From a virus, in IMG/VR virus record IMGVR_UViG_3300036770_004485: 33,235 bases of DNA; one strand, given 5' to 3'. Numbering within the stretch: position 1 is the first letter of the stretch; each line of letters begins with the position of its first letter. Under the pieces are notes generated by a model, which was given only the letters and a program-made list of their open reading frames with translations, did no database searches and was not told the DNA's origin. A program made the translations under genes and the position numbers. Below, in pieces: positions 1 through 18,685 of this stretch.

Positions 1-3000
1 AGAAATAGATCCTAAACCATCTCCACTCAAAGTTGCCGTAGCGTTTGCTCTCATTGTTGAACCAAACCCAACAGGATTTGCTACTATGACTGAAGGAGCA
101 ATTGTATATCCAATTCCAGGATATGTAATTGATATTGAAGAAATTGTTCCTAGTCCAGATACTATTGCTGTTGCACTAGCACCAACAAAATCTCTCTGAT
201 CATAAATCTCTATAATCTGTTTGCTATCATCAATAGACTCATTGTACGAGTCAAATAAAGGTATAACATTTTGCACCCAAATTTCGGTTGATCCAAGTCC
301 TACTGATTTTATAATAGTGCTGTTAGGTATGATATTTGCTTCATATAAAATACGATCTTTTGTAACTATGTTTCCATCAATAATAAGATCTTCTTGTTGT
401 TTGCACCAAGTCATTGGTCTTTGAATTGTACCATCAGTGGTCAGACCAGCATTAGTATATGGAGATGTTGTAAAATTGTCAGCAGTCAAAATTCCTACAA
501 CGCTTCTTTCACTTTGATCAAAATTAGATCTATAGAAATTACCATTTCCAATTCTAACTTTATCTCCAACTTTAATTGTTTCAAGAATATCTCTTGAAAT
601 AACATCAACATTTCCTGTTCCCTTATAGAATAAGATTGAACAAGTATCACCAACTTTCGGAGCTTCAGAAAAAGTGATATTTGAACCACCAGGGAATATA
701 TATGATTTACCAGGTTCTTGTAACACATTGTTCAAAAATACAATGATTGTTTGCTCTACATCAATAAGAGAACCTTTTTTTGCTCTGATAGTAAATTGTT
801 TGTTTTCTTTTTTCAAGACAAAAACTTTTTGAACACCATCAAATTGAGTATCAAGATTATCTAAAACATCTAGATCACCAAATCTCCAAGCAGTAAACTT
901 ATCAAACGATACCGTGTTCACAAACAATCTAAAGTCGCTAAATCCCGCACCAACTGTCGGATCTGTAGGTATGCCTGTCAATCCTCCAGAAGGAATTGTT
1001 AGTGTTTCACCTGCTCTATATCCATAACCAGAATTTGTCACCTCAAAATTCAGTACACTTGAACCAGAAGAAACCTGAATGTCAACAATTGCATTCGTTC
1101 CTAGTCCAGCGCCAGTAGAACTTGGATGATAAATTAGAGGAATATTTGAATATGGAATCGGAGCATCAATTACAACAATTGGAGGATTTGTAAATGTGTA
1201 TCCAATACCAGGATTAGTTACACTAACCCCAACAATGTGACCATTTGAAATAGACGCAGTTCCTATGGAAACTATATCTACAGCATCAAGATCTGCGGTT
1301 CTAACACCAACATTTACTGTTATTTGTTGTACCACCCCATTCAAAGTTGAGATACCAGATCTATATCCAGAACCACTATTTCCAATACTGACAGAAATAA
1401 TAGTACCAAATCCAGATATAATCGCTGTTCCTCCAGCTTGAACCAGTGGTTGATAACCAAATCCTTGAGATGATCCAAGAGATGCTAAAACTCCTCCAAC
1501 AGGAACAGTTCCTGTTCTTACGTCGTTTCTAACAGAGGCACCATATCCACTAAAAACGATTGAAGTTATACCAACATTTTCTACTAAGGCAAAATCATTT
1601 ATTCGTGAACTTTGAGATGGTATTTGTGCAATGTCATTTATCAGAATCAAGGCATGTGAAGTACTGAATCCAGATACATTATTTCCCTCTTGCTTTAGAG
1701 TAAATGTTTTTCCAACACCAGTAAGGTCTGGAGAAATAGAATCAAAAATATAATTGGTTGCATACGTATGTGTTGAAGCACCAACTACTCCATTCCTAAT
1801 GAAAACTCTTCCTTGGAATGTAGAACTTGTTTGTAATCCGGTCCAATATATTTCATCGGGATCATTAACATTTACAATCGGTTGTGTGCCATTTGGAGCA
1901 GTGTAAAAATTAATCGTATTATCAATAATATTATAAGAACCTTCATATTTTTCAACTACTGCTCCAGATGGATGAGTTGAAAATCCTGTACCCATCCAAC
2001 CTCTTTGTACAACAAAAACATTTGTACTACCAAATCCAACTTGTTTTATTGTCACGAACTCATCTTCCACTTTGAGAAGATCGCCACCATAGAATGATGT
2101 AATTCCAGACAATCTCATCAATTCACCACCAAAACTCATTTCCTCTATTAGAGTATGAGTAATATTTGCAGGAATTACTGGATCTTGAATGTTGTTATCT
2201 AGTGCTACTATGCATTTTGAATTTTGGTCTTGAGATATAAATGAGTGTGATGTGCCTATGCCAACGCTGGTTAGATTTAGATAATTGCCAATATTTGATA
2301 CTAATGAGTCTTGAGCAGAAGCTGCGACTCTTATTGACTTGTCATCAACCTTAATTGCATAAACATATTCTGGCAGTTTATCAGTAGATCCATAACCAGA
2401 TATAGTAGTAGTTCCAATACCAATTGAAGATGTGCTGCCAGTTCCTAAAGGAACATATCGCAGTCTTTCTCCAGAAGTAAAGAAGTGATTTGGAATGTAT
2501 ATTAAATTTTCTGTAACATCAACAATTGTCGGACTTGACGCATCGAAAGATTTAGCAAAAATTGGATCACCACCATGAAATAGACCGAATGCTCTGAGAA
2601 CGTCTGATTGAGTTCCAGTGTAAGTTCCTTCTACAGATTCTATAGAACTATCATTCAAACTAACCAAGGTAATTTCATCAACACCACCTTTTGTATGAGC
2701 AGCAGTATTCAAAAATGTTTTAACTATTGTTCTTGTAGATGCTGGGGGTGTGTAAACAATGTTTCTCAAACTACTTCCACTGATAACACCAAATGTGCCT
2801 ATTCCACTGTGAACGTTGTCACTATCATCATCAACGGATCCAAATAAAGTTTGATAGGAAAGTGTGCCTGTATCTGCCAAATAGAGAGATTCAAAAAATT
2901 CATATCTATTGTTAGTTACATCATAAACTTGAATAATTCCATAAGCAGCATCTTCATCTGGATGAACCCCAAAACTTGCTATTGTAGTAATTCCTGGGGA

Positions 3001-6000
3001 TGATGATGCTGGGATATCAGTATATCGTGCTATCAAATCTCCATTTGTCAAATTAGTTGTATCGACTCCTACCGTTGAAACTCCAGCATGAAACTTTGTA
3101 ACGAGCATGTGGAAAGTTAACGCAGATCCAACGGTAGAGATGCCGGTAGGAGTAAAGTTGAGATAAAGTACATTACTAGAAATATTCGCTCCAAAAGTAC
3201 CTATTGAAGGTCCAGGAATTGTTGTTAAATCATTATCAGTAATATGTCCATACTCTACTCCATACACGTTACTATTGTTATGAACTAAATTCATATTCAG
3301 AACTTCATGTCTATTGCCATGTTCAACTTCTATTATCAGTTTTGCAGATTCATAATTTGTTGTAGAGAATCCAAGTATGTTTACTGCGGTCGTTATTCCA
3401 GAAGGAATAGTTGTTCCTCTAGATTCAACACTGACAATATCCCCAACTGTATGAACACCTACTAAAGTAGCGATACCAACAGATGAATGTGGTGATCTAT
3501 CAATGTTATAAACCAAACCATGAATATCATAATCATTGAATTCATATTTTTCTGGATAGAATAATAATTGACCTTCACTACCAATTTGTTGATAATCAAA
3601 ATAACCATTGAGTTGAGTTTGCACATCACCATATTCTTGAACGAAACCATTTCCTTGGTTATCAATCAAAAGTTCAACGATCGCCATTTGTCTTTCATCA
3701 ACAAATTGGGTATCATTTGCCATTATCAAATATTTTCTAAATCTAGAACCTACTAGTGGAAATCTATCAATAACAGAATATCTTTCTGCTCTAGGAGTAT
3801 TATTAAAAGAGTTGCTTATATCATCAATACTCAAAACTCTATTACCAACTGATTCTTCATAATCTGTGATAGGTACATTTCTGAGCAAAATTTCATCAGA
3901 GAATGTTATTCCACTAATTTCTTTGGATTTTTCTGAAACCAAATCAAAATCAAATACACAATACGTTTCAACTTCCGAAATCAAATCTATAATTGATTCA
4001 ACATCATTACTGTTTATTTGTGGAGTAATATCAAACTCAGGATTAGATTCAATCGTAAGATCAGAGAACTTTTTAAATCCTGAAGTGTGATTCAAAGAAG
4101 AAACAACATCATTCCAGGTATCGTATGCAATTTTTGATTTAAGTGAATATGAGAAATATTGATAATAATCACTATCAATTAGTCGTTGTTCATTGACACT
4201 CAATTTGCCAGAGTCTTTTCTCCAACCTTTCACAACTAATGGAGATGCATCAATGTTGAAATAAGAATCTACGTTTATTTTTGATACAATTGTAGCAAGA
4301 GATCCAGATCCTTTACCTCTGACTTTATCTCCAACAGCAAATTCTTTTTTACTGTTTACTTTTAATATTTTATTTGTTTTGTCCCAACTCGAAACAACTC
4401 CTTCGACAGATTCAGATCCAGAAATAGTTACAAGTTCTTCACCAACAGAAAAATCATTTTTTATTAGTTTAGGATCAAATACTGGAAAGCTTGAATATGG
4501 AATCATTCTTCCATATGATTTGGTGGTTGAATACGTACCTGGATCACTGACATTAGAATGAAGTTTATATGTTGCAGATCCTATTCCACCAATGTTTGCA
4601 TTTACTGAAGTTAACTCAAAGAATGTATAATTATAATCACTTGAATTGTATCCAGAACCTTCCGATGCAATACCAATATTTTCCACAAATACTCTATCAC
4701 CAGCAGAAAATGGAAAAGAGTTTTGTGTTGAAAAACCTACAGAAAATTGTACCGTAACTTCTTTTGTAATTGTATTAAATCCAACCGTGCTTATACCAAC
4801 TCCGTTAGAATTATTTACTGTAATAATGGTTGGTTTTGTATCAGACAAAGATTTTGTATTTCTTGTAACATCAACTCTGGTAATAGTTCCATTTTTTATT
4901 TTAGGAACTAAGGTAACATCTTGAATTACAGTATTTGTAATAGGATCAAGAACAACAAGATTTGGTGGAACCAAAAAGTCTCTTCCTCCAGTTATAATTC
5001 CAACAGATTCAAAAGAATTCAATGATTCTACTTCTAAAATTTCTGGAGCATTAGCAATAATTTTGAATGTTGGATCCGATGGATAATTATACCCCGTGTC
5101 TCTAGTGGAAATCTTGGTAACTCTACCCATATTTCCAGACAATCTAACAATTCCATTGATTCCATTTTGTGTTGATATGGAATTAATCCCTGGTAGTGAT
5201 AGATATCCAGATCCAGATCTTTTTACCTCTACAGATTCTATAGGACCAGCAGCGGTAATAGAGTCAGTAACATAATAAAAAGTACCATCAGAACTTGCGT
5301 ATGATACTGATTCTGGATTTTGATTCAAAAGATATCTAAATGTGGTTGATCCAATTCCCGTTGGATATTGAACAGCATTATAAACGCTGGGAATTACATC
5401 AATCGTATTTGCAAATGATTGCTCTTCATCAATAAAAATTTCTGACTTTGATGATGGTATTACATCAATATTTACTGGGGTAAATTTATAATAAAGTTTT
5501 GGAGGAGTCAGATCATTTGTAGATATATTTACAGCAGCTGGATCTGTTGTTCCTACTGTGCCAATGGCAACAACTTCAAACTGCTTATTTGTTTTCGAAC
5601 TTATGTACTCTTCCCTAAAGGAGTTATCTTTATAAAATTCAAGTTTAAACGCTGGATACGTAGTTCCAACTGAAGTTGCAGATAAGGATCTATCCGTCAC
5701 CGCAAAAGAAACAAGATTTCCGCGATATACATTTACATGTGGGTTTACTTTTGAAATAAAATGTTCTCCACTGCCGATACTTGATATTCTTATTGGAGTT
5801 GGATTTGGTGAATATGAGAATATTTTTTGATTAGACAACTTAATATTGTTAGAGTCAATAACAATGACATAATACATCTCATTATTAACTAATCCATTTG
5901 GAGCAGATCCATTAGTGGTAAATATAATTTTTTGGGATTGCTCTAAACCATGATTTGAAATATTGATAGTATTAGTTACAGTGTTGATTCCAGATGGTTC

Positions 6001-9000
6001 GAATTTTTTTCTATCAAAAACAATTCTTCTATTGAAATCATTATATTGAACAAAAACTCTCTGCTCTTTATTTGGTTTAGAAATAATTGCAATTTGATCT
6101 TTGAAAGTTAATCCATGATTTTCGCTTGTAGTCAATATTGATTCATACACTGCTGCGTTGGCAGTAATAGAGTTTGTTTGTAGTGTTAAACTATGTGTTA
6201 CTCCACTACCAACAGAGACAAACAATAGTTTTGTTGATGTTGAACCTAAACCAACATAAGTTCCAGTAGAACCTATACCAATTTTAGTTGTGCTTAGTCC
6301 AACCAAATTTTCTGATTCTTTTATTGCATAAACTTTTGATTGATTTTCAAGATCAAATTCATTTATACCATTCCAAACTCTAAGGGACGATCCCCCTCCA
6401 TTTGAATAAACTAACTCATCTCCAGTTTCAAAACTATGATTGGAGATCAAAATAGAACCCAAAGGAACAATTTTTGAAGTAAATGCAATTCCAGATTCAT
6501 ATTGATTATTTTGTAGAAGATTTGGAGGAGCAATGTTATTCAATGGATGATATGAAATCGTTGTTCCAATTCCAACACTTGTTGCAGTCCCAAGAGCAAC
6601 AACTTCTGAAGGATTAAAATATCTTTGTAGTTTTGGTGGATTTGAAGTAAAAGTTGAAAAACCTACTGGAAAACTGAAAGTACTTTGATATTCTAGTACA
6701 AGAGTTCTAAAACTATATGAAGTCCCTACAGTGCCATCATAATTTCTTTGAACTCGAACTAATTGATTTTGCGGATCAATGTTTAGAACTTTTAATTTTT
6801 CTAAGTTTTCTGCACTAAGTCCAATTCCAATAATAGTATTTTCTCTAAAATAGAGAGGGTCGTATGAACCAATCAAACTAATTGTAGTTGTTAAACCAGT
6901 TGTAGATGGAGATTCAAGATTATCCCCCAAATACCATGATCTTTGAGGATTACTAATTATTTTATTGCCATTTAAGTTTGAATAACTATGTGTTGATAAA
7001 CCAGATATTATAATACTGTTTTTATTTTCAAAATGATGTGGTGATGTGCAATAACCTATTGCTAAACCACCGCTTACATATAATTCAAGATTTTCTGTTG
7101 ATATAGTTGATGATGCCAAAGATACAATATTTTTTCCACGAACAGATTTAATTTGAGCAGTGGTTGATCTTCCATAAAGAGGAGAACCCTCAATAACTAA
7201 ACGATCTCCTGGTTTATAACTAGATCCAGCAGATACTACATTAAATCCGGTAACAGATCCTTTTGAAGTTGATGTTATTTCCGTAACTTGCCTTGGATCT
7301 GCAGTGGAATCATTAATGTATTCACTGTATCCGAAATTTCTACTTGTTTTTGTTGGTCGGGTATTTCTAAAAAGTAAGTCATAGTTATAATCAACCTGAT
7401 TGATATTTCTGTCAAAGTTAAATGAATCTGGTTTTCCTTTGAAAGAATCCCCGATTACATAAGGAAACTGTGGTAATTTATAATTTTTGAATGCTCCAGA
7501 TCCTTCAGATGGTCCAGAATTTATCGTGGTATAATACGCATATGTGCCAAAAGGATAATCTGGAGTTTTTGCAAATCTTCCATTTTTTTCGTCTAAATCA
7601 CCATTACCAGCGAATACATAATCTTCAATAAAATACCCGTTTGAGAATCCAGGAGGTCTTTCAGAACTAGGAATTAGGTCATATCCAGATCTAATTTCAC
7701 GAACAGATCCTCCTCTAGGAGTATCATATGCAAATGGACCATAAATTGGATGTCCATCAAAAGCCCAACCAATAATTGGAGAGTGATATTCTGAAGATAC
7801 CTCAACATTGTTGATTTTTCTTAAATCAACAGAATCTGCTCCATATTTTGTTTCTCCATCTTCACTCTTTGCATATATCAGTTCTCTAAGTGCTCTAGGA
7901 GCAGTCATTGCAGCATAACTACCGCGAGAATACTGATTTTTACTCTCTGTTAGGATTCCATCATCAACACTAAGATTATTTTTATATCTCTCAAAATTAT
8001 TAATAGTCCATTTACGAATTTTTGCTCTTGCCTTTGCTCCTTGACCAGTTGGAATAACATCGATAAAGGTAGTGAAAGTAGTAAATCCACTACCTCCATC
8101 ATTAATTTGTATCGATGTAATAGATCCATTGTGAACAATTGGAGTCAATGATGCATTTGAACCAGAACCAGAAATTTTCAACTCTGGTTGTGCTACATAT
8201 CCAGATCCACCATTGATAACAAAAACTTCTTTAATTTGTCCACTTGATATGATTGGTTTTAGTTGAGCTCCAGAACCACTATCAAATAAAATTAGAGGTT
8301 GTCTTTCAAAATTAATTACATCGGAACACCCATATCCGACTCCAGTTTTTTCTAGGTTTATTTTTTGAACATACCCTCTAAATTTTGGTTTTACTGTTGG
8401 TTGGAATATTAAATTATTTGTGGTTTCAATTCCAACATTACCACTAATTTGAACAACAATTGGAGGATAGTTGAATATGTGAGTTCCTCCAACTCCGACA
8501 TTCTTGAAATCAACAAAAATTTGATTTTTATAGTTATAATCAGAAATTGTTGTTCCAATTCCTGCTGCAGATAGTTTGAAATTACTATCATCTAGTTTAT
8601 AGACATAATATTGCTGATCGGTGGTCAACCCAGAAATCGACACACCTTCATATTTGTATTCTATTAGATCTCCACTGGAAAAACCATGATTATTATAAGT
8701 AATTTGATTTTTGCTAGAACTAATACCAGATGAAGAAATTCTAATAGGATTATTAGTGTAACCAAATCCTTTATCAGATATTGTTATTGATGATAATACA
8801 TTTTTTAATTCAACGGTTGTAAAGTATTGATTTCCTTGTCCAAAATCAGTGATATTAATTGTGTTTATTCCAGATAAAGCATCAGATTTTCTGGTGTGTA
8901 ATTTTATCTGACTCAATCCTATTGTTGACACATAATATACTGAATTATCTACTAAGTTAGCATCTCTGATAACAGAAGATTGATGCGTCCCAATTCCGAT

Positions 9001-11586
9001 TGGAGTTTGCGAATTTGAACTGTAAACAATCGCGTCACCATTTCTAAATCTATGATATGTGGAAAATCCAATGGTATTTGTAGACGTTGAAATAAATCCT
9101 GACCCTACACTTGTATTTGTAAAGGCAATAAGTTTTTCTTTTCTAGTATTTGCTTTAGCTACTGCTCCAAAACCATTTCCACCAGTTATGGTGATGATAG
9201 GATTTGTGACAAAATCCGATCCCCCATCTAAAACTTCAATTGCTTCTAACTGCCCAACAACCGTCGCCGTTGCGGTTGCACCAGATCCAACAGAATCCTG
9301 TATAATTATCTTTGGAGGATTGATTACGTCATAATTACTTCCACCCGCAGTTACATCAATATTAGTAATGCTGCCGTAATAACAAAAATCTTGAGACTTA
9401 TAACTTAAGATATCTACACCGTTAATAAAAACTCCAACTATTCCTGGAGAAACTTCATGATACTTTGAAGTTTCTGTAATTTCAAATGGAATTTTTCTAA
9501 TGCCATAAGAAGAATCTAAAGAATTTTCATATGACTTTATTGGATAAATTTGCTGAAAACTAGCAATACCAGATACATTTACAAATTTATTTTCAAATAA
9601 CTCCGATCTTGAAGGAGACAATTTAATATTATCGGGGTCAACTGATTTTACAAAATAAGTTCCTTCTCTAAGATCACCTAAAGTTCTTTCTGTCGTAATT
9701 GCTATCGGTTCTCCATATCCTCCAACTAATTCAACAAATTTATCTGGAATATAATAAACTTCATCTCCAGTTATGAAACTATGATTTGGAGCAGGGATGG
9801 TATCGCCAGAAATTACAATTCCATTTCCAGTCCCACCATCACTTATATTTACGACTCCGGTTCTGACATTGATTGGATCTCTGTATGATGGAAGTGAATG
9901 AGAAGTAATGTAAACTGAGTCATTGACATCATAAAACGATTTGACAACGTTAGCAGGAAGTTCTGAAACAGTATTATTTTGAGAATATACTTTTGTCAAT
10001 ATTCTCTTAACATTTCCTTTGTTAAGTGGGTTGAACCCATTCAAACCAGATACGTCAAAGGAATAATCTGAAATAATTTTATTAACAATACCAGTAGTAA
10101 CATATCCATTTGGACTAATTGTTTTTATTGTATCCCCGACGTTTAGAGTATGCTTTTCGTAAGTTTCTAATTGAAAAAGAGAAATAATATTTGGATTTTG
10201 TCCTAATTGGTTAGAACTTAATATTCTTGCATTTTTGATAACAAATGTTGAAGATTCATTAGATATGAGGGAATCTGTAATAACATTATCTTTATCATAT
10301 CCAAGAGACTGTAATCGTATGATATCATTTTTTACAAAGTATGGCGTATCAATATCTGTAGCTTTTATAGTATAATCACCAATACTTCCTTTGATTCTAA
10401 AAGAAATTTCATTTCCTTCAGAATCGTATCCATATGAAAGATTATTTTGGAATACTTCTTGGGTATCACTAATTTGATCTAATATTCCGTTTACATTCAA
10501 AAATTGAGATATATTTTTTGACGAATAAGTAACTATTCCAACACTTCCATTGGAATATGTTACATACAATTCACCAGTTTTTGCAAATCCAATTGTCGAT
10601 TCTACATTTATAAATGTAGAACCAGATGAAACATTATCAATTACTTTAGTTTGAGGATCAACTACAAACTTTCCATACAAAGAACCATATGTTACAATAT
10701 CTTTATCTTCGTTGTAATCAACGTTGATTCGATAAAACTCTTTTCCATCTCTTTTGATATTTTCTACATCGACAACAGATCCATAGGCAATAATATTGCC
10801 ATTTGAATTTTCTTGATATATTGTTTTTGTGGATAAATCTCCTATATTACCAATAATTGGTTCAACATTCAATTGCAAAACTCTTTGGTATCCTGCATCA
10901 GATGGAGTAAAAAGATTTTCTTGTGGTTTTAGTACCTTTACTCTTTCATCATATAATGCATTGAAAAGAATTTCAAAAGAATTTTCTGTTCCTTTAGATG
11001 TATAAAAATCTTTTGACTGCCTAATAAAATTGGCAACATTAAGTTTTTTATTCAGTTCTCTGTCTTCAAATCCGGGCAAAAATTGAGTTTTTAATTTTTT
11101 GAAGAATTCTTTCAAAAATAACGAGGAGAGATTTATTACTTTAGTCTCATTTATATGATCATCTGCTAGAGATGATTCAAATATCAACTCATCTGGACCA
11201 TTCAATCCCCTATAACTTGTAATCCCACTAAAACCTCTAATGCATCCAGTAAAAGAAGTGTTTGTTTTTCCAGTGTAAGAAATAATTTCATTATCAATTT
11301 TTAGCAAACCATATGAATCTGGCCAACCATTAGTGGATAAAACATTAACAGTAATGTCTGTAGAGTTTGCGTCAGAAGTAAGAGTTGTATAATCAACAAT
11401 AGAAGTATATGTGCCAACTTTTACATATTGATCTATGTTATCAAGTATGTCTATTGATCCACCTTGATACTCTGTTGATTTGTAATATGTTTTTAGAAAA
11501 TCTCCTAATCTTTGATTTTCTGAGTTGACAAAATCTGGCAGTTGCTGCTCGATTACTGTTTGGATTTTTACTCTTTTTTCTAACAT
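1..11586 (-). CDS. Giant baseplate wedge initiator / gp7-like structural protein (3' end outside window, >=3862 aa)
   Basis: ATG at 11586 (MLEKRVKIQTVIEQQLPDFV...), 1 nt after the gp6 stop. The same frame still reads sensibly at positions 60-1 (STMRANATATLSGDGLGSIS). The ORF track lists no terminated ORF in this frame, implying no internal stop. Contains FYTSKGTE.SF.ILF motif, many NH.F..GD...Y repeats and G/S/T/I-rich beta repeats. Follows the gp25-gp6-gp7 order of cyanomyoviruses. Confidence 0.88.
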   Translation of the reverse strand, partial: MLEKRVKIQTVIEQQLPDFVNSENQRLGDFLKTYYKSTEYQGGSIDILDNIDQYVKVGTYTSIVDYTTLTSDANSTDITVNVLSTNGWPDSYGLLKIDNEIISYTGKTNTSFTGCIRGFSGITSYRGLNGPDELIFESSLADDHINETKVINLSSLFLKEFFKKLKTQFLPGFEDRELNKKLNVANFIRQSKDFYTSKGTENSFEILFNALYDERVKVLKPQENLFTPSDAGYQRVLQLNVEPIIGNIGDLSTKTIYQENSNGNIIAYGSVVDVENIKRDGKEFYRINVDYNEDKDIVTYGSLYGKFVVDPQTKVIDNVSSGSTFINVESTIGFAKTGELYVTYSNGSVGIVTYSSKNISQFLNVNGILDQISDTQEVFQNNLSYGYDSEGNEISFRIKGSIGDYTIKATDIDTPYFVKNDIIRLQSLGYDKDNVITDSLISNESSTFVIKNARILSSNQLGQNPNIISLFQLETYEKHTLNVGDTIKTISPNGYVTTGIVNKIISDYSFDVSGLNGFNPLNKGNVKRILTKVYSQNNTVSELPANVVKSFYDVNDSVYITSHSLPSYRDPINVRTGVVNISDGGTGNGIVISGDTIPAPNHSFITGDEVYYIPDKFVELVGGYGEPIAITTERTLGDLREGTYFVKSVDPDNIKLSPSRSELFENKFVNVSGIASFQQIYPIKSYENSLDSSYGIRKIPFEITETSKYHEVSPGIVGVFINGVDILSYKSQDFCYYGSITNIDVTAGGSNYDVINPPKIIIQDSVGSGATATATVVGQLEAIEVLDGGSDFVTNPIITITGGNGFGAVAKANTRKEKLIAFTNTSVGSGFISTSTNTIGFSTYHRFRNGDAIVYSSNSQTPIGIGTHQSSVIRDANLVDNSVYYVSTIGLSQIKLHTRKSDALSGINTINITDFGQGNQYFTTVELKNVLSSITISDKGFGYTNNPIRISSSGISSSKNQITYNNHGFSSGDLIEYKYEGVSISGLTTDQQYYVYKLDDSNFKLSAAGIGTTISDYNYKNQIFVDFKNVGVGGTHIFNYPPIVVQISGNVGIETTNNLIFQPTVKPKFRGYVQKINLEKTGVGYGCSDVINFERQPLILFDSGSGAQLKPIISSGQIKEVFVINGGSGYVAQPELKISGSGSNASLTPIVHNGSITSIQINDGGSGFTTFTTFIDVIPTGQGAKARAKIRKWTINNFERYKNNLSVDDGILTESKNQYSRGSYAAMTAPRALRELIYAKSEDGETKYGADSVDLRKINNVEVSSEYHSPIIGWAFDGHPIYGPFAYDTPRGGSVREIRSGYDLIPSSERPPGFSNGYFIEDYVFAGNGDLDEKNGRFAKTPDYPFGTYAYYTTINSGPSEGSGAFKNYKLPQFPYVIGDSFKGKPDSFNFDRNINQVDYNYDLLFRNTRPTKTSRNFGYSEYINDSTADPRQVTEITSTSKGSVTGFNVVSAGSSYKPGDRLVIEGSPLYGRSTTAQIKSVRGKNIVSLASSTISTENLELYVSGGLAIGYCTSPHHFENKNSIIISGLSTHSYSNLNGNKIISNPQRSWYLGDNLESPSTTGLTTTISLIGSYDPLYFRENTIIGIGLSAENLEKLKVLNIDPQNQLVRVQRNYDGTVGTSYSFRTLVLEYQSTFSFPVGFSTFTSNPPKLQRYFNPSEVVALGTATSVGIGTTISYHPLNNIAPPNLLQNNQYESGIAFTSKIVPLGSILISNHSFETGDELVYSNGGGSSLRVWNGINEFDLENQSKVYAIKESENLVGLSTTKIGIGSTGTYVGLGSTSTKLLFVSVGSGVTHSLTLQTNSITANAAVYESILTTSENHGLTFKDQIAIISKPNKEQRVFVQYNDFNRRIVFDRKKFEPSGINTVTNTINISNHGLEQSQKIIFTTNGSAPNGLVNNEMYYVIVIDSNNIKLSNQKIFSYSPNPTPIRISSIGSGEHFISKVNPHVNVYRGNLVSFAVTDRSLSATSVGTTYPAFKLEFYKDNSFREEYISSKTNKQFEVVAIGTVGTTDPAAVNISTNDLTPPKLYYKFTPVNIDVIPSSKSEIFIDEEQSFANTIDVIPSVYNAVQYPTGIGSTTFRYLLNQNPESVSYASSDGTFYYVTDSITAAGPIESVEVKRSGSGYLSLPGINSISTQNGINGIVRLSGNMGRVTKISTRDTGYNYPSDPTFKIIANAPEILEVESLNSFESVGIITGGRDFLVPPNLVVLDPITNTVIQDVTLVPKIKNGTITRVDVTRNTKSLSDTKPTIITVNNSNGVGISTVGFNTITKEVTVQFSVGFSTQNSFPFSAGDRVFVENIGIASEGSGYNSSDYNYTFFELTSVNANIGGIGSATYKLHSNVSDPGTYSTTKSYGRMIPYSSFPVFDPKLIKNDFSVGEELVTISGSESVEGVVSSWDKTNKILKVNSKKEFAVGDKVRGKGSGSLATIVSKINVDSYFNIDASPLVVKGWRKDSGKLSVNEQRLIDSDYYQYFSYSLKSKIAYDTWNDVVSSLNHTSGFKKFSDLTIESNPEFDITPQINSNDVESIIDLISEVETYCVFDFDLVSEKSKEISGITFSDEILLRNVPITDYEESVGNRVLSIDDISNSFNNTPRAERYSVIDRFPLVGSRFRKYLIMANDTQFVDERQMAIVELLIDNQGNGFVQEYGDVQTQLNGYFDYQQIGSEGQLLFYPEKYEFNDYDIHGLVYNIDRSPHSSVGIATLVGVHTVGDIVSVESRGTTIPSGITTAVNILGFSTTNYESAKLIIEVEHGNRHEVLNMNLVHNNSNVYGVEYGHITDNDLTTIPGPSIGTFGANISSNVLYLNFTPTGISTVGSALTFHMLVTKFHAGVSTVGVDTTNLTNGDLIARYTDIPASSSPGITTIASFGVHPDEDAAYGIIQVYDVTNNRYEFFESLYLADTGTLSYQTLFGSVDDDSDNVHSGIGTFGVISGSSLRNIVYTPPASTRTIVKTFLNTAAHTKGGVDEITLVSLNDSSIESVEGTYTGTQSDVLRAFGLFHGGDPIFAKSFDASSPTIVDVTENLIYIPNHFFTSGERLRYVPLGTGSTSSIGIGTTTISGYGSTDKLPEYVYAIKVDDKSIRVAASAQDSLVSNIGNYLNLTSVGIGTSHSFISQDQNSKCIVALDNNIQDPVIPANITHTLIEEMSFGGELMRLSGITSFYGGDLLKVEDEFVTIKQVGFGSTNVFVVQRGWMGTGFSTHPSGAVVEKYEGSYNIIDNTINFYTAPNGTQPIVNVNDPDEIYWTGLQTSSTFQGRVFIRNGVVGASTHTYATNYIFDSISPDLTGVGKTFTLKQEGNNVSGFSTSHALILINDIAQIPSQSSRINDFALVENVGITSIVFSGYGASVRNDVRTGTVPVGGVLASLGSSQGFGYQPLVQAGGTAIISGFGTIISVSIGNSGSGYRSGISTLNGVVQQITVNVGVRTADLDAVDIVSIGTASISNGHIVGVSVTNPGIGYTFTNPPIVVIDAPIPYSNIPLIYHPSSTGAGLGTNAIVDIQVSSGSSVLNFEVTNSGYGYRAGETLTIPSGGLTGIPTDPTVGAGFSDFRLFVNTVSFDKFTAWRFGDLDVLDNLDTQFDGVQKVFVLKKENKQFTIRAKKGSLIDVEQTIIVFLNNVLQEPGKSYIFPGGSNITFSEAPKVGDTCSILFYKGTGNVDVISRDILETIKVGDKVRIGNGNFYRSNFDQSERSVVGILTADNFTTSPYTNAGLTTDGTIQRPMTWCKQQEDLIIDGNIVTKDRILYEANIIPNSTIIKSVGLGSTEIWVQNVIPLFDSYNESIDDSKQIIEIYDQRDFVGASATAIVSGLGTISSISITYPGIGYTIAPSVIVANPVGFGSTMRANATATLSGDGLGSIS

Positions 11587-11587
11587 T

Positions 11588-13489
11588 TTATCTCGTTATC
11601 GATCCATTAGTAAAACTTGATGAAACTGAGTAGTTATATCCAGACTTGTCAGAACCTGATGAAATAGTATCTGGAACAACATTTATAACACTCTTACTTA
11701 TATCTAGTTGCAAAAATAAATCCTGTAATCCAATCACATCATTTGATTCTGGCACTGCTTGAATTTCAATTATTGAGATATCAGAATCAATGATTGAAGT
11801 GTTTACAATTCTAATTGGAGATAATAAAATCTCTCCCTTTTCATAATTTACGGTTCCAACATTTCTTCTGACAATAGATCCTTCTGTATCAGAAACTTTT
11901 CTGATTAAATTAATAATACCCGTTTTCAAATCAGAATTTGGAACATCTGTTAGAAAAACTTCGCCAGTGTAACCGTCTAAGAAAAATCCCGTGGTTTTTA
12001 TATTGTAACCCTGTACGTTGACATGAAATTTATTTCCAAAGCAAATTTCATAATCTGCAAATGAATTCAAAACAGGTCTCAAGTTACGACGCATTACAAC
12101 TTTAGTAATGTTCGAAGTAATAGCAGAACTTGTATTATCAATTATACTCAACAATTTACTATATTTGAGTCTTGAACCAAATTTATTAAGATCTGTAGAA
12201 TCTGCATATGTTTGTAAAGACTCTGAGACTTGAGTTTTGATGTAACTAGCACCTTCAGATTTGTTAGTGTTGTAATAAACATTTGAATTGATTTCTATGA
12301 ATAAGTAGTTCAAATCAATAATCTTTGGCATTATGCCAGCAACAGAGTAACTTTTCAGTTTTTGCTCTATATCAAATTTAATAAAATTTGATAGATAATT
12401 GCCATTCTTTGGTTTGACGCCAATAAAAACTCTTCCGTATTGTGGAGGAGATAAAGTTTCTCCACCAAAAACAACGGATGATTCTGTTTCTGGAAAAACT
12501 TTTTTAATTATGGATTCATAATCAGTCGCAGTTACTGCTCTATTTTGAGCAGCGTAGTTCTTAGGAGCATAATTGCGAATCGAATCCACAGATTCAATCT
12601 CACCGCCACCTGTTGACTCTTGAGTAAGAGAAATATCTGATACGCCAGTGGTTACGACTCGATCATTATTGTCAACTAATCGACCAGCAAAAGTGAAGTT
12701 TCTAATTCCATTCGCTTGAGATCCATTAGTTATGATATACGTTGCTGTAATATAGTTATTATTTTCTAGTCTATTTCCAAAAACACCATCTCCGAAAAGA
12801 ATTTCATATCTTTCATCGGCAACTTCTTGTAATAGATAGATTTTGGAATCTGGTCCAACATCGATGATGCTATCTACAAATTCATATTTTACTGAAGAAA
12901 TTGCATAATCAAAATCTTTTACTTTTACAATCAATGTAGAAGTATCAACATTTGAATTTGGTATGATAAATTTTTGATTCAGTTGAGATGTATTCACCGT
13001 AAAATTATTTTCTAAGTAAGTGCCTTCATAAATTTCAATATCATTGAAGAATGCAAGGTTATCAATGATATTAACAGTGATATCTTCGGGAATGCAGAAC
13101 GTATAGTTAGACCCTCCAAAACTGTCTGAGACCGCCACCAGACCCGCTCTAAGGGTCAATGTGTTAGGATTGGTGGTAAGAGACGATGTATCAACAAAAA
13201 AACTTACAGTTGCTTTTGATGCTTTTTTTGAAGATGGTAAATATCCAATATTTCTTGCAAGTGCTACAATGTTTTCTCTAAGAGTGGCACTATCGATAAA
13301 TCCTTCATTTGCCAACATATTGGCATTGTATGAAGAAATATATGTGTTATATGCTAAAACGTCAATTAGAACAGAGAAATTTGATCCCTCAAAATCAAAA
13401 TCTGTGAAATTAGAATTTGAACGCAGATAATCTTTTATCTGCGTTTTTATTTGATCAAAGTCTAGGTCTGAAAACTTTGTAAGTGGCAT
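11588..13489 (-). CDS. gp6: T4-like baseplate wedge subunit gp6
   Basis: 633 aa; LDFDQIK...FTDFDFEGSN.SVLIDVLAYNTY, FIDSATLRENIV, FGDGVFG and QNRAVTATDY motifs. Confidence 0.95.
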   Translation of the reverse strand: MPLTKFSDLDFDQIKTQIKDYLRSNSNFTDFDFEGSNFSVLIDVLAYNTYISSYNANMLANEGFIDSATLRENIVALARNIGYLPSSKKASKATVSFFVDTSSLTTNPNTLTLRAGLVAVSDSFGGSNYTFCIPEDITVNIIDNLAFFNDIEIYEGTYLENNFTVNTSQLNQKFIIPNSNVDTSTLIVKVKDFDYAISSVKYEFVDSIIDVGPDSKIYLLQEVADERYEILFGDGVFGNRLENNNYITATYIITNGSQANGIRNFTFAGRLVDNNDRVVTTGVSDISLTQESTGGGEIESVDSIRNYAPKNYAAQNRAVTATDYESIIKKVFPETESSVVFGGETLSPPQYGRVFIGVKPKNGNYLSNFIKFDIEQKLKSYSVAGIMPKIIDLNYLFIEINSNVYYNTNKSEGASYIKTQVSESLQTYADSTDLNKFGSRLKYSKLLSIIDNTSSAITSNITKVVMRRNLRPVLNSFADYEICFGNKFHVNVQGYNIKTTGFFLDGYTGEVFLTDVPNSDLKTGIINLIRKVSDTEGSIVRRNVGTVNYEKGEILLSPIRIVNTSIIDSDISIIEIQAVPESNDVIGLQDLFLQLDISKSVINVVPDTISSGSDKSGYNYSVSSSFTNGSITR

Positions 13490-13887
13490 TATCTTGTTGC
13501 CTGAAGAATGAAGTCTATTGCTTGTGGATTATTTGGTTGCCCAACAATGTAGTACGAAATCAAAACATTATATGCATTGTCATCGTATACTGGAGTCACT
13601 TCTACCGTATTCAAATATACTCTTGGTTCATAATTGTTGATCGTTGTTTCAATTTCCGATCTTATGACACTTGCAGTACCAATATCTAGAAGTTCAAATA
13701 AACTTCCACTAATTCTTGAACCAATATTAGGTTCAAAGAATCTTTCACCCAAGTTTGTGAGTACTAAATTACGAATCGAACGAGAAATTGCAGTCTCGTT
13801 CGTCAAAACAGTGACATCATTTGTAATAGGATGCCTCTGGAATGCTAGAGAAATGTCTTTGAATGACTTTGAAATAGCTTGAGGCAC
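13489..13887 (-). CDS. gp25: Baseplate wedge subunit gp25 (GPW/gp25 family)
   Basis: 132 aa, GTG start; FKDISL.F..HP.T.D, AI.RSIRNLVLT..GERFF.P..GS and I.NYEPRV motifs; TAATG overlap with gp6. Confidence 0.95.
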   Translation of the reverse strand: MPQAISKSFKDISLAFQRHPITNDVTVLTNETAISRSIRNLVLTNLGERFFEPNIGSRISGSLFELLDIGTASVIRSEIETTINNYEPRVYLNTVEVTPVYDDNAYNVLISYYIVGQPNNPQAIDFILQATR

Positions 13888-15033: not shown

Positions 15034-15810
15034 TCAGATAATACGAGTTTTCTCATGACCCACACGAATCCGAGGGTCTACCCAGATATCAAATCCTGCG
15101 GCGATGGCATCGAGACAGAATGAGACATCTTCTCCGCACATATCCTGCACTTCTCCAGACTCAAACTGTTGCATCTTCGGAGCAAACCACGGATACTTCA
15201 TCTCAGAATGCTCAAACACTCCGTTCTTAATCAGCACCCAACCGAAACCAATATAATCGACTGTGAAGGGTTTGCGACGTTTGGAAATCGATTCCAGAGT
15301 CTCATGATTCATGACTCCACCATTCTTACGGAAGTCACCTTCCTCCAACCAGTGAGCACATGAAGTGGTTTGTCCATCTTCTGTACAATACCAACCAGAG
15401 ACAATCTCTTTCTCTGTACCATCTTCTGCAATCGCAAGATCGCACAATTGCCAGAACTTATTCGTGTCAAATACAATATCCGAATCAATCCAGAGTTGAT
15501 AATCATATTGCAGTTTACCATCCCAGGGAACCTGATCAGGACCGCGTAGTACATTTGCACCAAGACACTTACAACGTGCAAAGTTCACCATGGAAGAATA
15601 ATCTTGAGAGATCTGAATACTCATTCCATTCTGAACCATGTCAAAACAAAGTTGAACAAAGTTCTTCAGAAAGATGTAAGATACCCCACGACCAGGAAGA
15701 CAAAACACAATGCTCTTCCCACGCATTCTTTGTTTAATTGCATCAATATCAAACTCCTCAGTTTTCTGTATAGGAGGAGTTTTTGCTTTTACAGTAAATC
15801 CTTTTGACAT
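15034..15810 (-). CDS. GT-A fold (GT2-like) glycosyltransferase
   Basis: WIDSDIVF (DxD), GEDVSFC and VGHEK motifs; start moved to the ATG of MSKGFTVKAK. Confidence 0.75.
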   Translation of the reverse strand: MSKGFTVKAKTPPIQKTEEFDIDAIKQRMRGKSIVFCLPGRGVSYIFLKNFVQLCFDMVQNGMSIQISQDYSSMVNFARCKCLGANVLRGPDQVPWDGKLQYDYQLWIDSDIVFDTNKFWQLCDLAIAEDGTEKEIVSGWYCTEDGQTTSCAHWLEEGDFRKNGGVMNHETLESISKRRKPFTVDYIGFGWVLIKNGVFEHSEMKYPWFAPKMQQFESGEVQDMCGEDVSFCLDAIAAGFDIWVDPRIRVGHEKTRII

Positions 15811-15858
15811 AAGTTTGAATGACCTACAATTCAATTCTAACTTATTATATAGCGTTTG

Positions 15859-16059
15859 TCAATGAGACGAATCTAATGAAATCTCTTTGACATATTCGAC
15901 CTGTTCATAGGAAAGATCACTTACACTGTAATCTGTTTTCATGAGACCAACCATGTTTCTGATTGTTTCCCATTTGTTTTCAAAATCTTCCCTCTGAAGA
16001 TTATGAAATAGACATTTATCTTTTGCGTAGATATGAAATCTAAACTCTTTGGTAATCAT
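15859..16059 (-). CDS. Hypothetical protein
   Basis: 66-aa ORF overlapping the cupin stop region. Confidence 0.7.
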   Translation of the reverse strand: MITKEFRFHIYAKDKCLFHNLQREDFENKWETIRNMVGLMKTDYSVSDLSYEQVEYVKEISLDSSH

Positions 16060-16393
16060 CTTCGATTCTTACAATGTCTTCTTCGATGCACTGAGATCCT
16101 AATTGAACCTCTATTATAGTTATACCATTTTCATCTGCTCTGAGTCTGTGCTTCTGACCGCACTCAATTGTAAACGTGCTGTGAACCTTTGCAGAATATA
16201 CCTGGTCCTCAATGGTGACAAATCCCCCACCTTTTACAACTGTCCAATATTCTGAACGATGATGATGATACTGTAATGATAACTGCTGATTTGGTTTTAC
16301 GACTAACCTCTTCACCTTATAGAATTCCTCATCTAGAAGATTCTCATAGTGACCCCATGGGCGTTCAAATTTCTCCGGGGAATTTTTTTCCAT
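16040..16393 (-). CDS. Cupin, mannose-6-phosphate isomerase type II C-terminal-like
   Basis: ERPWG.Y, KVKRLVV.P...LSLQYHHHRSEYW.VV.G, HRL and IIEVQLG...EEDIVR.EDDY.R motifs. Confidence 0.9.
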   Translation of the reverse strand: MEKNSPEKFERPWGHYENLLDEEFYKVKRLVVKPNQQLSLQYHHHRSEYWTVVKGGGFVTIEDQVYSAKVHSTFTIECGQKHRLRADENGITIIEVQLGSQCIEEDIVRIEDDYQRV

Positions 16394-16623
16394 ACATGAA
16401 ACCTCTTCACACTTTTATATATCGCGGCGATTTTTTATTTCTCACTCGATTTGTCACCTCTGTAGGTTAGGGATGTTTTGATTTTTAATATAAGGAACGG
16501 CGATCGGGTTTATACGCCCCATCGCCGCCCGACGCCACCAACGCCCGCACAAATACACTGCCATTTCTAACAGCAACTGCCATCACATCACAGCACAACA
16601 CTGATGCTTACTGTGTCCCTCCT

Positions 16624-16652
16624 ATTATAACACCTCACAGGTCAACTGTCAA
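16624..16652 (-). promoter_or_regulatory. Consensus sigma70-type promoter
   Basis: TTGACA-17-TATAAT with extended TG; followed by ~225 nt lacking a convincing ORF. Confidence 0.85.
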
Positions 16653-16655
16653 GTC

Positions 16656-16844
16656 TTAGTGATACGCTGTCTCCCAGAGTGACTCTACATCAGCTGACAG
16701 ATCTTCCACAGTGACTGTCAACGACTCACCGCCGCCGATATCAAAGACCTTGTGAAAATCGATCTGCTGGACATCAAAGTCATCAAATACTTCAAAGTCC
16801 AATGTGACACGTAGGCGCTGTTTGTGTCCAGTGCAAGTGTTCAT
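16656..16844 (-). CDS. Hypothetical protein (62 aa)
   Basis: Start moved to MNTCTGHKQR, downstream of the promoter at 16869-16898. Confidence 0.7.
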   Translation of the reverse strand: MNTCTGHKQRLRVTLDFEVFDDFDVQQIDFHKVFDIGGGESLTVTVEDLSADVESLWETAYH

Positions 16845-16868
16845 GAGTTCCTGGTGATTGACCTTGTT

Positions 16869-16923
16869 ATTATATAACAGGTCTGGTGCATCTGTCAAGG
16901 TGTGACTGTCAGGGAACTGGTAC
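16869..16923 (-). promoter_or_regulatory. sigma70-type promoter with degenerate upstream palindrome
   Basis: GTACCAGTTCCCTGACAGTCAC then TTGACA-18-TATAAT. Confidence 0.75.
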
Positions 16924-16941
16924 AATCTGGCGGGGTGGGGG

Positions 16942-16970
16942 TTGACAACTGTGTCGTGTTATGTTATGCT
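16942..16970 (+). promoter_or_regulatory. Plus-strand sigma70-type promoter firing into the DnaA-box/iteron array
   Basis: TTGACA-17-TATGCT with extended TG; the only clear plus-strand promoter seen. Confidence 0.65.
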
Positions 16971-16988
16971 CGCTAAGATCACAAGACT

Positions 16989-17157
16989 CACAGGGTATAA
17001 AACAAGATCACAACAGTTTTCCACAGGGTATAACACAGATTTCACACATCTTTCTGACAGGTATAACAACAGTTTTCCACAGATTTACAACACTTTTCCA
17101 CAGATTGTGGAAAACGTTATAACAAATACATTTACATTATTAATTACATTTTTAATC
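16989..17157. repeat. Iterated units with four TTTTCCACA DnaA-type boxes and an AT-rich tract (candidate origin)
   Basis: TTTTCCACA at 17017-17025, 17073-17081 and 17094-17102, inverted copy at 17106-17114; three (C/G)ACAG(G)GTATAA units at ~33-bp period; AT-rich 17113-17157. Confidence 0.75.
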
Positions 17158-17346
17158 ATTTTTTACCTCTTTTTGAGTATAATTCACGTCATTCCAGTGC
17201 CTAACAGCATTAGAAACGATTGCAATGTTGGTAATCAGATAGGAGGAAAGAATCACGGTTCTGATGATAGCAACAATGTCTGCCTCTCTATCACATTTAC
17301 CTTTCTTTTCACCTAGAGCGTAACACCATAGTCTCCACAGATTCAT
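17152..17346 (-). CDS. Small probable membrane protein
   Basis: 64 aa; W..ALGEK...D.EAD..A.IRT followed by a hydrophobic stretch. Confidence 0.75.
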   Translation of the reverse strand: MNLWRLWCYALGEKKGKCDREADIVAIIRTVILSSYLITNIAIVSNAVRHWNDVNYTQKEVKND

Positions 17347-17564
17347 TCGTTACGTTGTCGAATAGAGGACAAAGGTGTGATCCGATTGTAGTCATCTGGG
17401 TACACGAGTAGACAACATCCACCGACACTATTCTCTGATTCACGAATACACACAGTAACATAAGATTCGCAAACAAATTGAATCTTTCCATAGAATGTAT
17501 CACCATTCTCTTTATCATACCTGACCTCTAATCCTTCATGAAAAGAGGAGTTTTTCAAGGGCAT
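17343..17564 (-). CDS. Hypothetical protein
   Basis: Likely start MPLKNSSFHEG; ATGA overlap with the next gene. Confidence 0.65.
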   Translation of the reverse strand: MPLKNSSFHEGLEVRYDKENGDTFYGKIQFVCESYVTVCIRESENSVGGCCLLVYPDDYNRITPLSSIRQRNE

Positions 17565-17847
17565 TTTGTCGGATTGGCATTGCTGAGAACGGACTGGTTT
17601 GGGTAACAACTTTTCCAGGGGTTTTGGGGTTGATTGGGGCATGAACTTCTCCTGTCTTTTTGTTTACGAATCCCCAGATTGTCTGAGTTGGTTTTCCTAA
17701 ATTGTAATCAAACTTTCGCTTGCAAACTAACCAAATAGCAATGAACTTTGCATTGAAGTCTTGTTCTGAATAGGAGTAATCTTGAGGAAGTTCAGTAACA
17801 TTCTTCCGAAGCAAGGCGTAAGCGGAAGAGTGGTTTTTCAAGGTCAT
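17536..17847 (-). CDS. Conserved cyanophage-type hypothetical protein
   Basis: IWL...FDYNLGKP..TIWGF...HAPIN motif; start uncertain. Confidence 0.7.
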   Translation of the reverse strand: MTLKNHSSAYALLRKNVTELPQDYSYSEQDFNAKFIAIWLVCKRKFDYNLGKPTQTIWGFVNKKTGEVHAPINPKTPGKVVTQTSPFSAMPIRQNALEKLLFS

Positions 17848-17932
17848 CAGTATAATTCTCCTCGATACATTCAATAATAGCATCCAGGTGCGATTTTGTC
17901 AATTCAAGTGTAAACAAAGTTTCGGTGTCCAT
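17792..17932 (-). CDS. Small acidic hypothetical protein (46 aa), not in ORF track
   Basis: Manual translation MDTETLFTLELTKSHLDAIIECIEENYTDDLEKPLFRLRLASEECY. Confidence 0.6.
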   Translation of the reverse strand: MDTETLFTLELTKSHLDAIIECIEENYTDDLEKPLFRLRLASEECY

Positions 17933-17937
17933 TTTAA

Positions 17938-18186
17938 TCAGTTCAGTTCACGAAGTTCGTTTTCAATACAGTTGAAGACTTCCTCATAGAGGTAATCATA
18001 ATCGTCTTCCACATTGTTGAGAACTTGCTCTGCAATCTCACGGGATTGTGTCACTTGTTCTCCATCTTCATTCATCACGAATACATCGGGATTGGTGAAG
18101 ATAAATGCAGCAACAGGAGCATCTGCACCCTGTTCGGCAATCATACGCTCGACAGATTCTTTGAGTTGTTGTAAAGTTCGTGCCAT
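17938..18186 (-). CDS. Hypothetical protein
   Basis: 82-aa ORF in an operon-like array. Confidence 0.8.
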   Translation of the reverse strand: MARTLQQLKESVERMIAEQGADAPVAAFIFTNPDVFVMNEDGEQVTQSREIAEQVLNNVEDDYDYLYEEVFNCIENELRELN

Positions 18187-18370: not shown

Positions 18371-18685
18371 TCATGCCAGACGCATACCTGAGAAGAACGG
18401 AATCGGAGCACCTGAGTAGTTAACAAACCACTCAAAGTTCTTGGCAAAGACTCGCTCACCTTCCATTCCGAAGGCACTCAGAATAGCATTGAGGCGAGAC
18501 TTTGTGGTGTGAGATTGCCAACCACCATCAAACAATTCGATCCAGGTTTCACCAATGCGAGCAATCAAATTGCCATGCAGATAGACATCAGAAACATTCG
18601 TGCAAGAGATAACTTCAGTGTTGGCAAGTTTGAAGTCTTGATTGTTTTTGATGGCGGCGATCATTTGGGATTCGATCTTACGCAT
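18371..18685 (-). CDS. Conserved phage early hypothetical protein
   Basis: 104 aa; VYLHGNLIA, GGWQS.TTKSRLNA motifs; first gene behind repeat unit R1. Confidence 0.85.
   Translation of the reverse strand: MRKIESQMIAAIKNNQDFKLANTEVISCTNVSDVYLHGNLIARIGETWIELFDGGWQSHTTKSRLNAILSAFGMEGERVFAKNFEWFVNYSGAPIPFFSGMRLA

Follow-up and report, generated by a model that had tools for sequence, protein, structure and literature searches.

The interval 16869-17183 of the DNA analysed here, a stretch of 33,235 bases that we call the window, appears from its sequence to be one example of a non-coding control module which T4-like cyanophages (Kyanoviridae) carry at a single locus. The module is the best candidate for the replication start of these phages. 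Its promoter and unwinding-element design, its single-copy conservation and its gene-less antisense promoter make an origin the best guess. In the specific form put forward here, to which we give somewhat less than an even chance, it would be an origin of the T4 oriF/oriG type (promoter plus unwinding element) on which host DnaA docks. The docking of DnaA on the box array, taken alone, is quite probable.

T4-type phages replicate mostly by recombination, possess several origins and are thought to begin replication without a host initiator. To our knowledge, no replication origin has been mapped in any T4-like cyanophage. For Syn9, the prediction of a single theta origin is cited in PMC2984593. 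No paper linking cyanophages to DnaA boxes or to TTTTCCACA was found in the literature searched, subscription journals lying outside it.

The window is part of a T4-like cyanophage with all genes on the minus strand, including the baseplate genes gp6 and gp25, a UvsW-like helicase and many members of small cyanophage PHROG families. At the DNA level it is nearest to Synechococcus phages, which are only 70-83% identical, and among isolates to the lake phage DSL-LC02. The window DNA was also found in freshwater, subsurface and drinking-water metagenomes, and therefore the host is probably a freshwater picocyanobacterium. The box cluster occupies a 300-bp gap separating two small minus-strand genes. 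The upstream one (17152-17346, 64 aa) belongs to phrog_1679 (E 8e-29) and the downstream one (16656-16844, about 62 aa) to phrog_12516 (E 4e-15, with the match beginning at residue 28 of the longest frame). The site had previously been placed at the junction of the early and structural regions; it lies near this junction but not at it, as gp25 (13489-13887) and gp6 (11588-13489) are located about 3 kb downstream, with three other genes between them and the boxes. Searches for terminator-like sites in 16400-17700 and for tRNAs in the whole window gave none, and Rfam over 15800-18000 returned only sub-threshold chance matches.

Four exact copies of TTTTCCACA within 98 bp, as reported in the earlier note, are present at 17017-17114. 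In detail, box 1 (17017-17025), box 2 (17073-17081) and box 3 (17094-17102, 21 bp after box 2) are on the plus strand, and box 4 (17106-17114) is inverted, 3 bp after box 3. Boxes 1 and 2 have the extended form (GTTTTCCACAG in box 1). Box 1 is unchanged in the strain variants X5 and X9, and boxes 2 and 3 are likewise unchanged in the variants. The window holds six copies of the 9-mer on both strands, against 1.02 +/- 0.93 expected from 100 dinucleotide shuffles, none of which reached six. The same note had counted only one copy outside the cluster, but there are two, at 4679 (+) and 9058 (-). The expectation for 98 bp is about 0.003 copies, so that four boxes in this space are far beyond chance.

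Two decayed boxes can be read from the sequence between boxes 1 and 2, on the plus strand, at 17040-17048 (two mismatches) and 17051-17059 (three mismatches). When they are included, the box spacings are 23/11/22/21/12 bp, i.e., in helical phase. The decayed boxes keep a 23/11/22 phasing between boxes 1 and 2, comparable to the 22/11/21 arrays of L051, L064, L068 and L129, and may still be bound by DnaA. The pair of direct boxes 21 bp apart is the core of what we call type-A modules, and an inverted, often imperfect box 2-6 nt past the last direct box recurs in L099, L110, L136, L095 and S-BM3.

The 9-mer is a cyanobacterial DnaA box (PMC4674748), and its earlier identification as such is further supported by box pairs across the Cyanobacteriia: pairs within 30 nt were found in 169 of 201 genomes, against three reversed-pattern matches in all. 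In the host arrays, boxes recur at 11 and 21 bp and have the extension TTTTCCACAG. The phage boxes have the flank logo AG-box-GG, and both the flanks and the 11/21-bp phasing are shared with the cyanobacterial arrays; spacings in the phage arrays are 11-13, 19-25, 56 and 78 bp. Cyanobacterial genomes of 2.2-2.5 Mb, for which size served as a proxy for picocyanobacteria, carry only 3-8 extended boxes GTTTTCCACAG, in two loci.

Several observations on the host genomes can be added. Many Cyanobacteriia genomes of 1.6-2.7 Mb have no direct box pair. Two small cyanobacterial genomes (L303-L306) have two box-array loci each. The box-richest locus of one 2.5-Mb genome, with about ten boxes and DnaA-trios, is flanked by Wzy_C and ArsA-like genes and not by dnaN, and the other array locus is located between ycf66-like and amine-oxidase-like genes.

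The array of the window differs from a host oriC in several respects. DnaA-trios are defined as runs of at least three NAN repeats, with the consensus 3'-GAT-5', no farther than 16 bp from a box (PMC8287927). The host array L303, with tandem boxes, a 4-nt spacer and (CTA)4 TAA TAA, is a textbook case. The longest run in the window is two, and over 48 phage modules the median is 2.5, against 3 in the wrong-strand control; no trios thus stand within 16 bp of a box in the phage module, whereas (CTA)4 follows the tandem boxes of the host. The order of boxes and AT-rich tract also varies between phage groups, the boxes are fewer, and neither dnaA nor dnaN is a neighbor. What is shared with cyanobacterial arrays and oriC (PMC4674748, PMC8287927) is the 9-mer itself, the AG..GG flanks, the 11/21-bp phasing and an AT-rich neighboring stretch. 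The proposal of an oriC mimic is not supported in its strict sense, given the missing trios and the differing order, and both these features count against an origin more generally.

A phage-encoded reader of the boxes was considered and rejected: DnaA domain IV (PF08299) had no match in five module-bearing genomes, although 10 of the 14 genomes searched as a control did contain it. Since no phage DnaA domain IV was found, the reader of the boxes is likely to be the host protein.

Two predicted promoters stand back to back upstream of the boxes. P-minus (16869-16898, minus strand; TTGACA-18-TATAAT, 12 of 12 consensus matches) is the predicted promoter of the downstream small gene, which has a probable ATG at 16844 with AGGA 8 nt before it and is overlapped by an RNA contig covering 16644-16778. 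Its hexamers are unchanged in the strain variants, where the sole change (16882) falls in the spacer, and a divergent partner promoter recurs in related modules. P-plus (16931-16970, plus strand) consists of a G-rich run, TTGACA (16942-16947), 17 nt and a TG-extended TATGCT (16965-16970). It has 10 of 12 consensus matches plus the TG, and its hexamers are also unchanged in the variants. The predicted P-plus is antisense to every neighboring gene and points into the boxes and then into the AT-rich tract. The block GGGG-TTGACA-N17-TAnnnT is also found in L123, L099, L110, L136, L130, L092 and S-BM3. P-plus itself would be expected to fire. In the one metatranscriptome that shared part of this stretch, contigs were located on the flanking ORFs only, which does not imply that the uncovered module is silent.

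The start-region motif CTAAGATCACAAG (16973-16985) follows the -10 hexamer of P-plus after 3 nt. CTAAGA(T/C) with CACAAG occupies this position in type-A modules, and CTAAGAC is invariant in the alignment of the type-C cassette described below. The leader (16975-17070, plus strand) then contains three repeat units, U1 (16975-17003), U2 (17004-17036) and U3 (17037-17070). U1 and U2 are tandem duplicates, both beginning with AAGATCACAA, and ACAGG(G)TATAA is present in all three units, i.e., as ACAGGGTATAA at 16990 and 17023 and as ACAGGTATAA at 17057, with spacings of 33 and 34 bp and no copy elsewhere in the window. The last two repeat units open with the final ACA of a box or decayed box, and therefore the repeat unit is a box plus its 3' flank. 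The claim of iterons is thus borne out as far as three units at a period of about 33 bp are concerned, but as iterons they are weak, the first unit being the most variable spot among strain variants. Relatives have leader repeats that differ in sequence and copy number, or none at all, and a Rep-like neighbor was looked for and not found. Tandem repeats between promoter and boxes were also observed in the leaders of L092, L136, L134 and L139 (type A and DSL-LC02), with variable copy number and a shared core (CATTTATAAG / CATAAGAA).

The AT-rich tract (17118-17183), a candidate unwinding element, contains ACATTTTTAAT and overlaps the 3' end of the ORF at 17152-17346. The flanking AT-rich stretch seen earlier proved to be exceptional, as no other 40-mer among the 33,235 bases is less stable than 17125-17164 (90% A+T) and no other 60-mer less stable than 17124-17183. 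The 40-mer begins 10 bp past box 4, and an AT-rich region thus lies beside the boxes, as is asked of an oriC. The counterparts of the tract in S-PM2, DSL-LC02 and Syn9 are among the least stable 0.008-0.5% of 40-bp windows, and the related motif TATTTTTTAATACATTT was found in S-PM2, DSL-LC02, S-BM3 and P-HM2.

Conservation of the boxes in relatives, on which the earlier note had let its proposal depend, was found, with arrays at one locus in the same neighborhood. When IMG/VR was scanned for box pairs no more than 30 nt apart, at least 116 stretches were obtained, and 44 of the 116 listed are T4-like cyanophage contigs with homologues of gp6, gp25, phrog_1574 and Gp96. Many of these listed contigs have 4-6 exact boxes with the recurring spacings 11-13, 19-25, 56 and 78-79 bp. 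The other 72 of the 116 listed stretches are not T4-like by tblastn and may be other phages or host DNA. Some of these are GC-rich (0.55-0.68) with six boxes (L127 and L079), and L109 has five boxes with a 9-bp period.

Among 17 complete Kyanoviridae genomes, ten have a box-array locus, one locus each. Nine of them contain at least two exact boxes within 50 bp (S-PM2, DSL-LC02, S-RIM4, S-RIM32, S-H38, S-RIM2, S-CREM1, Syn9 and one IMG/VR genome), and the tenth, S-BM3, has one exact box plus three boxes with one mismatch. No array was found in the remaining seven (S-T4, S-CAM7, S-SCSM1, B3, P-SSM2, P-SSM4 and P-HM2). In S-PM2 and Syn9, the module is located at 19.2 kb and 52.6 kb, respectively.

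Three layouts can be distinguished. Type A, to which the window was assigned by eye and from its promoter and box positions, has P-minus and P-plus back to back, a leader, two direct boxes 21 bp apart, an inverted box and the AT tract. In type B, four phased boxes and an inverted one stand between P-minus and P-plus, and a box pair and the AT tract come after P-plus. Type C (S-PM2, DSL-LC02 and others) has TTGACA-N17-TAAGAC, a conserved leader, TATTTTTTAATACATTT, two boxes 12 bp apart and an inverted box. Accordingly, the boxes precede the AT tract in the window and in S-BM3-type modules and follow it in S-PM2, DSL-LC02, L085 and L104. In the window, S-PM2, Syn9, DSL-LC02, S-BM3 and the S-RIM phages, the promoter of the cassette runs antisense to the genes around it.

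A box-free sequence model of the type-C cassette gave one match per genome, at the box locus, in nine genomes. The model also matches P-HM2 (E 9e-7), although the cassette there is not followed by any box, even if one mismatch is allowed. This presence of the cassette without boxes shows that the promoter-leader-AT cassette is the core and the box array an add-on. Together with the seven of 17 genomes that have no boxes, it also implies that DnaA is not essential to the role of the cassette. In P-HM2 (L307, 35200-36000), a direct repeat of ACTATGAAATC (two copies) stands at the place held by boxes in other phages. As a detector of the module in the window, the type-C model (R1) was rejected, its best match there being the AT tract at E 1.3.

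Close-variant contigs from two other studies, a set which was not selected for boxes, unlike that from IMG/VR, span 16644-17936. Each variant has about 22 substitutions and 10 indels over this range. The changes pile up at 16988-17012, i.e., in the first of the repeat units, with substitutions and small deletions in two independent variants. No change is listed for 17013-17274, so that all four boxes and the AT tract are identical.

Kyano_Gp96 (18371-18685, minus strand; PF23790, E 1e-42) is the most constant neighbor of the module: in 19 of 21 sequences, among them Syn9, S-PM2 and DSL-LC02, it lies no more than 1.5 kb from the boxes. The phrog_1679 gene has 20 relatives in IMG/VR whose contigs are devoid of a box cluster; the module is therefore not tied to this gene but to the Gp96 neighborhood. 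The Kyano_Gp96 family has 5912 relatives, many of them more than 80% identical. The AlphaFold model of the protein (pLDDT 93) shows two halves, each of helix plus beta-sheet, and comparisons with the PDB by sequence and by fold gave no match (best Z 3.9). Gp96 was not retained as a DNA-binding partner, since the model is confident, yet has no PDB sequence or fold match to back it.

The closest known design is that of T4 oriF (uvsY) and oriG (gene 34), R-loop origins composed of a promoter and a downstream unwinding element (PMC3016281). A comparable arrangement is found in the sequence of the window, with P-plus at 16942-16970 and the AT tract 150-210 nt downstream, and a host sigma-70-type -10 is present in the promoter of the module too. 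The T4 promoters are MotA-dependent middle promoters which also serve genes (PMC3016281), whereas that of the module is of the sigma-70 -35/-10 type, with a TTGACA -35 and no MotA box, and is antisense and gene-less. T4 has no DnaA boxes against the four of the module, and an R-loop in the latter is putative. As far as we know, cyanomyoviruses lack motA and asiA.

As an origin of this type, the module would work as follows. Host DnaA, present at infection, would dock on the box array, while P-plus would transcribe over the boxes into the AT tract. The transcript would open the tract or hybridize to it, as at T4 oriF/oriG, and prime the phage replisome (gp41/61, gp43, gp44/62, gp45 and gp59). 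DnaA may help or gate the first origin-dependent round and would not itself unwind the DNA as it does at oriC. As phage genomes multiply, their arrays would soak up DnaA as a side effect. Cumulative GC skew of the window, Syn9, S-PM2 and DSL-LC02 is monotonic with no signal at the module; this is because coding is on one strand, and the skew says nothing about an origin.

The main rival is a transcription switch without origin function, in which bound DnaA blocks or stimulates P-plus and/or P-minus; we regard it as possible but rather unlikely. Early expression would then track the level of host DnaA, or an antisense RNA that targets the early genes upstream would do so, and titration of DnaA by the phage copies could make a copy-number timer. 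The box positions suit such a switch, as they occupy +40 to +140 relative to P-plus in the window and fall between the two promoters in type B, and so do the conserved antisense orientation and the absence of DnaA-trios, which fits a docking or roadblock role. There is also a precedent in lambda, where DnaA-protected boxes lie downstream of the antisense promoter pO (PMC3985674). At pO (oop), it is the antisense promoter activity, rather than the RNA, that modulates origin firing (PMC3985674), and lambda is therefore a phage precedent for the preferred origin reading as well. The likeness of lambda pO/pR to the module thus includes host DnaA boxes downstream of an antisense promoter and the use of the host initiator as a regulator (PMC3985674), but lambda has its own initiator O with iterons, which loads host DnaB, and two imperfect boxes against four exact ones. 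What the switch leaves unexplained is the specific, conserved and extremely AT-rich tract which always accompanies the promoter. Moreover, neither a conserved RNA structure nor a terminator nor an Rfam family came to light, and the antisense transcript was not seen in the one RNA run, where contigs covered the flanking genes only. A primary function as a DnaA sink, also raised in the earlier note, is improbable. Like E. coli datA, the array is a cluster of high-affinity-type boxes, all exact matches, outside the chromosomal origin, and could lower free DnaA, drawing it from the host oriC and stopping host initiation. By simple arithmetic, the boxes of a few dozen phage genomes, at four per genome, would exceed the 3-8 extended boxes of 2.2-2.5 Mb host-type genomes. 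A pure sink explains too little of the module's anatomy, as it needs no fixed orientation, antisense promoter, AT tract or fixed neighborhood, and many relatives have only two or three boxes, while an array is missing from 7 of 17 genomes. On the host chromosome, datA acts by a hydrolysis of DnaA-ATP that depends on IHF, and the module has promoters and an AT tract which are unneeded by a sink.

Two further readings are less probable still. The 9-mers could be read by a phage-encoded protein or by another host factor, their identity with DnaA boxes being convergence or a relic. The small neighbors phrog_1679, phrog_12516 and Kyano_Gp96 have no known function, and Gp96, with no known fold, is tightly linked to the module. 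This reading is very unlikely, as the match to the host consensus reaches past the 9-mer into the flanks and the 11/21-bp phasing, the five phage genomes searched gave no homologue of DnaA domain IV, and P-HM2 has the cassette in a Gp96-family neighborhood without boxes. We give marginally less credit to an iteron-type origin, in which a phage initiator would bind to the ACAGG(G)TATAA units, with the DnaA boxes in an auxiliary role. Iteron plasmids (P1 oriR, F and pSC101) and T4 oriE resemble the module in having direct repeats beside DnaA boxes and an AT-rich stretch, and T4 oriE has iterons of unproven role. The three units at 33-34 bp spacing, and the leader repeats of several related modules, which share a core (CATTTATAAG / ATAAGA) and vary in copy number, would also agree with it. 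On the other side, close strain variants differ most in the first unit, so that the repeats are not conserved even at this level, the short-leader relatives L099, L110 and L095 have none, units 2 and 3 overlap a box or decayed box and may reflect tandem duplication of box plus flank, and no cognate Rep-like gene was identified. The strict oriC mimic and the iteron origin both lack defining features among those that could be compared.

The oriF/oriG-type origin docking host DnaA thus remains our preferred reading, and the conserved single-locus module, with its gene-less promoter, unwinding-prone tract and perfect boxes, is a concrete and testable origin candidate. It is a tentative proposal that T4-like cyanophages differ from T4 in making one defined origin fire in dependence on host DnaA, and we hold it to be possible but more doubtful than the origin itself. 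If true, the start of phage replication would follow the replication or cell-cycle state of the host, and thereby light and nutrients, and the accumulating arrays would shut down host initiation. Through the module, these very abundant viruses would also be coupled, directly and at the molecular level, to the replication state of the picocyanobacteria that are killed by them.

Some minor observations concern the annotation and the surroundings of the module. In S-PM2 (L138, NC_006820 15000-24000), RefSeq annotates nine tRNAs which overlap CDSs and DnaA boxes. ARAGORN found no tRNA on these 9 kb, and therefore the tRNA coordinates of the record look displaced.

Downstream of the phrog_12516 gene, a perfect TG-extended TTGACA-17-TATAAT promoter is located at 16652-16624 (minus strand), followed by about 230 nt without an ORF of more than 40 aa. 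The region 16393-16652 had no match in the phage collection and none in Rfam. Within it, 16582-16643 is swapped for a different 27-38 nt in variants from three metagenome studies, and depth spikes of 137x and 657x, against about 20x, occur at 16420-16503, as if a short piece were common to many genomes. Finally, an open frame of at least 3862 aa (1-11586, minus strand) lies directly downstream of gp25 and gp6 and runs off the window; it is presumably a giant baseplate or fibre protein.
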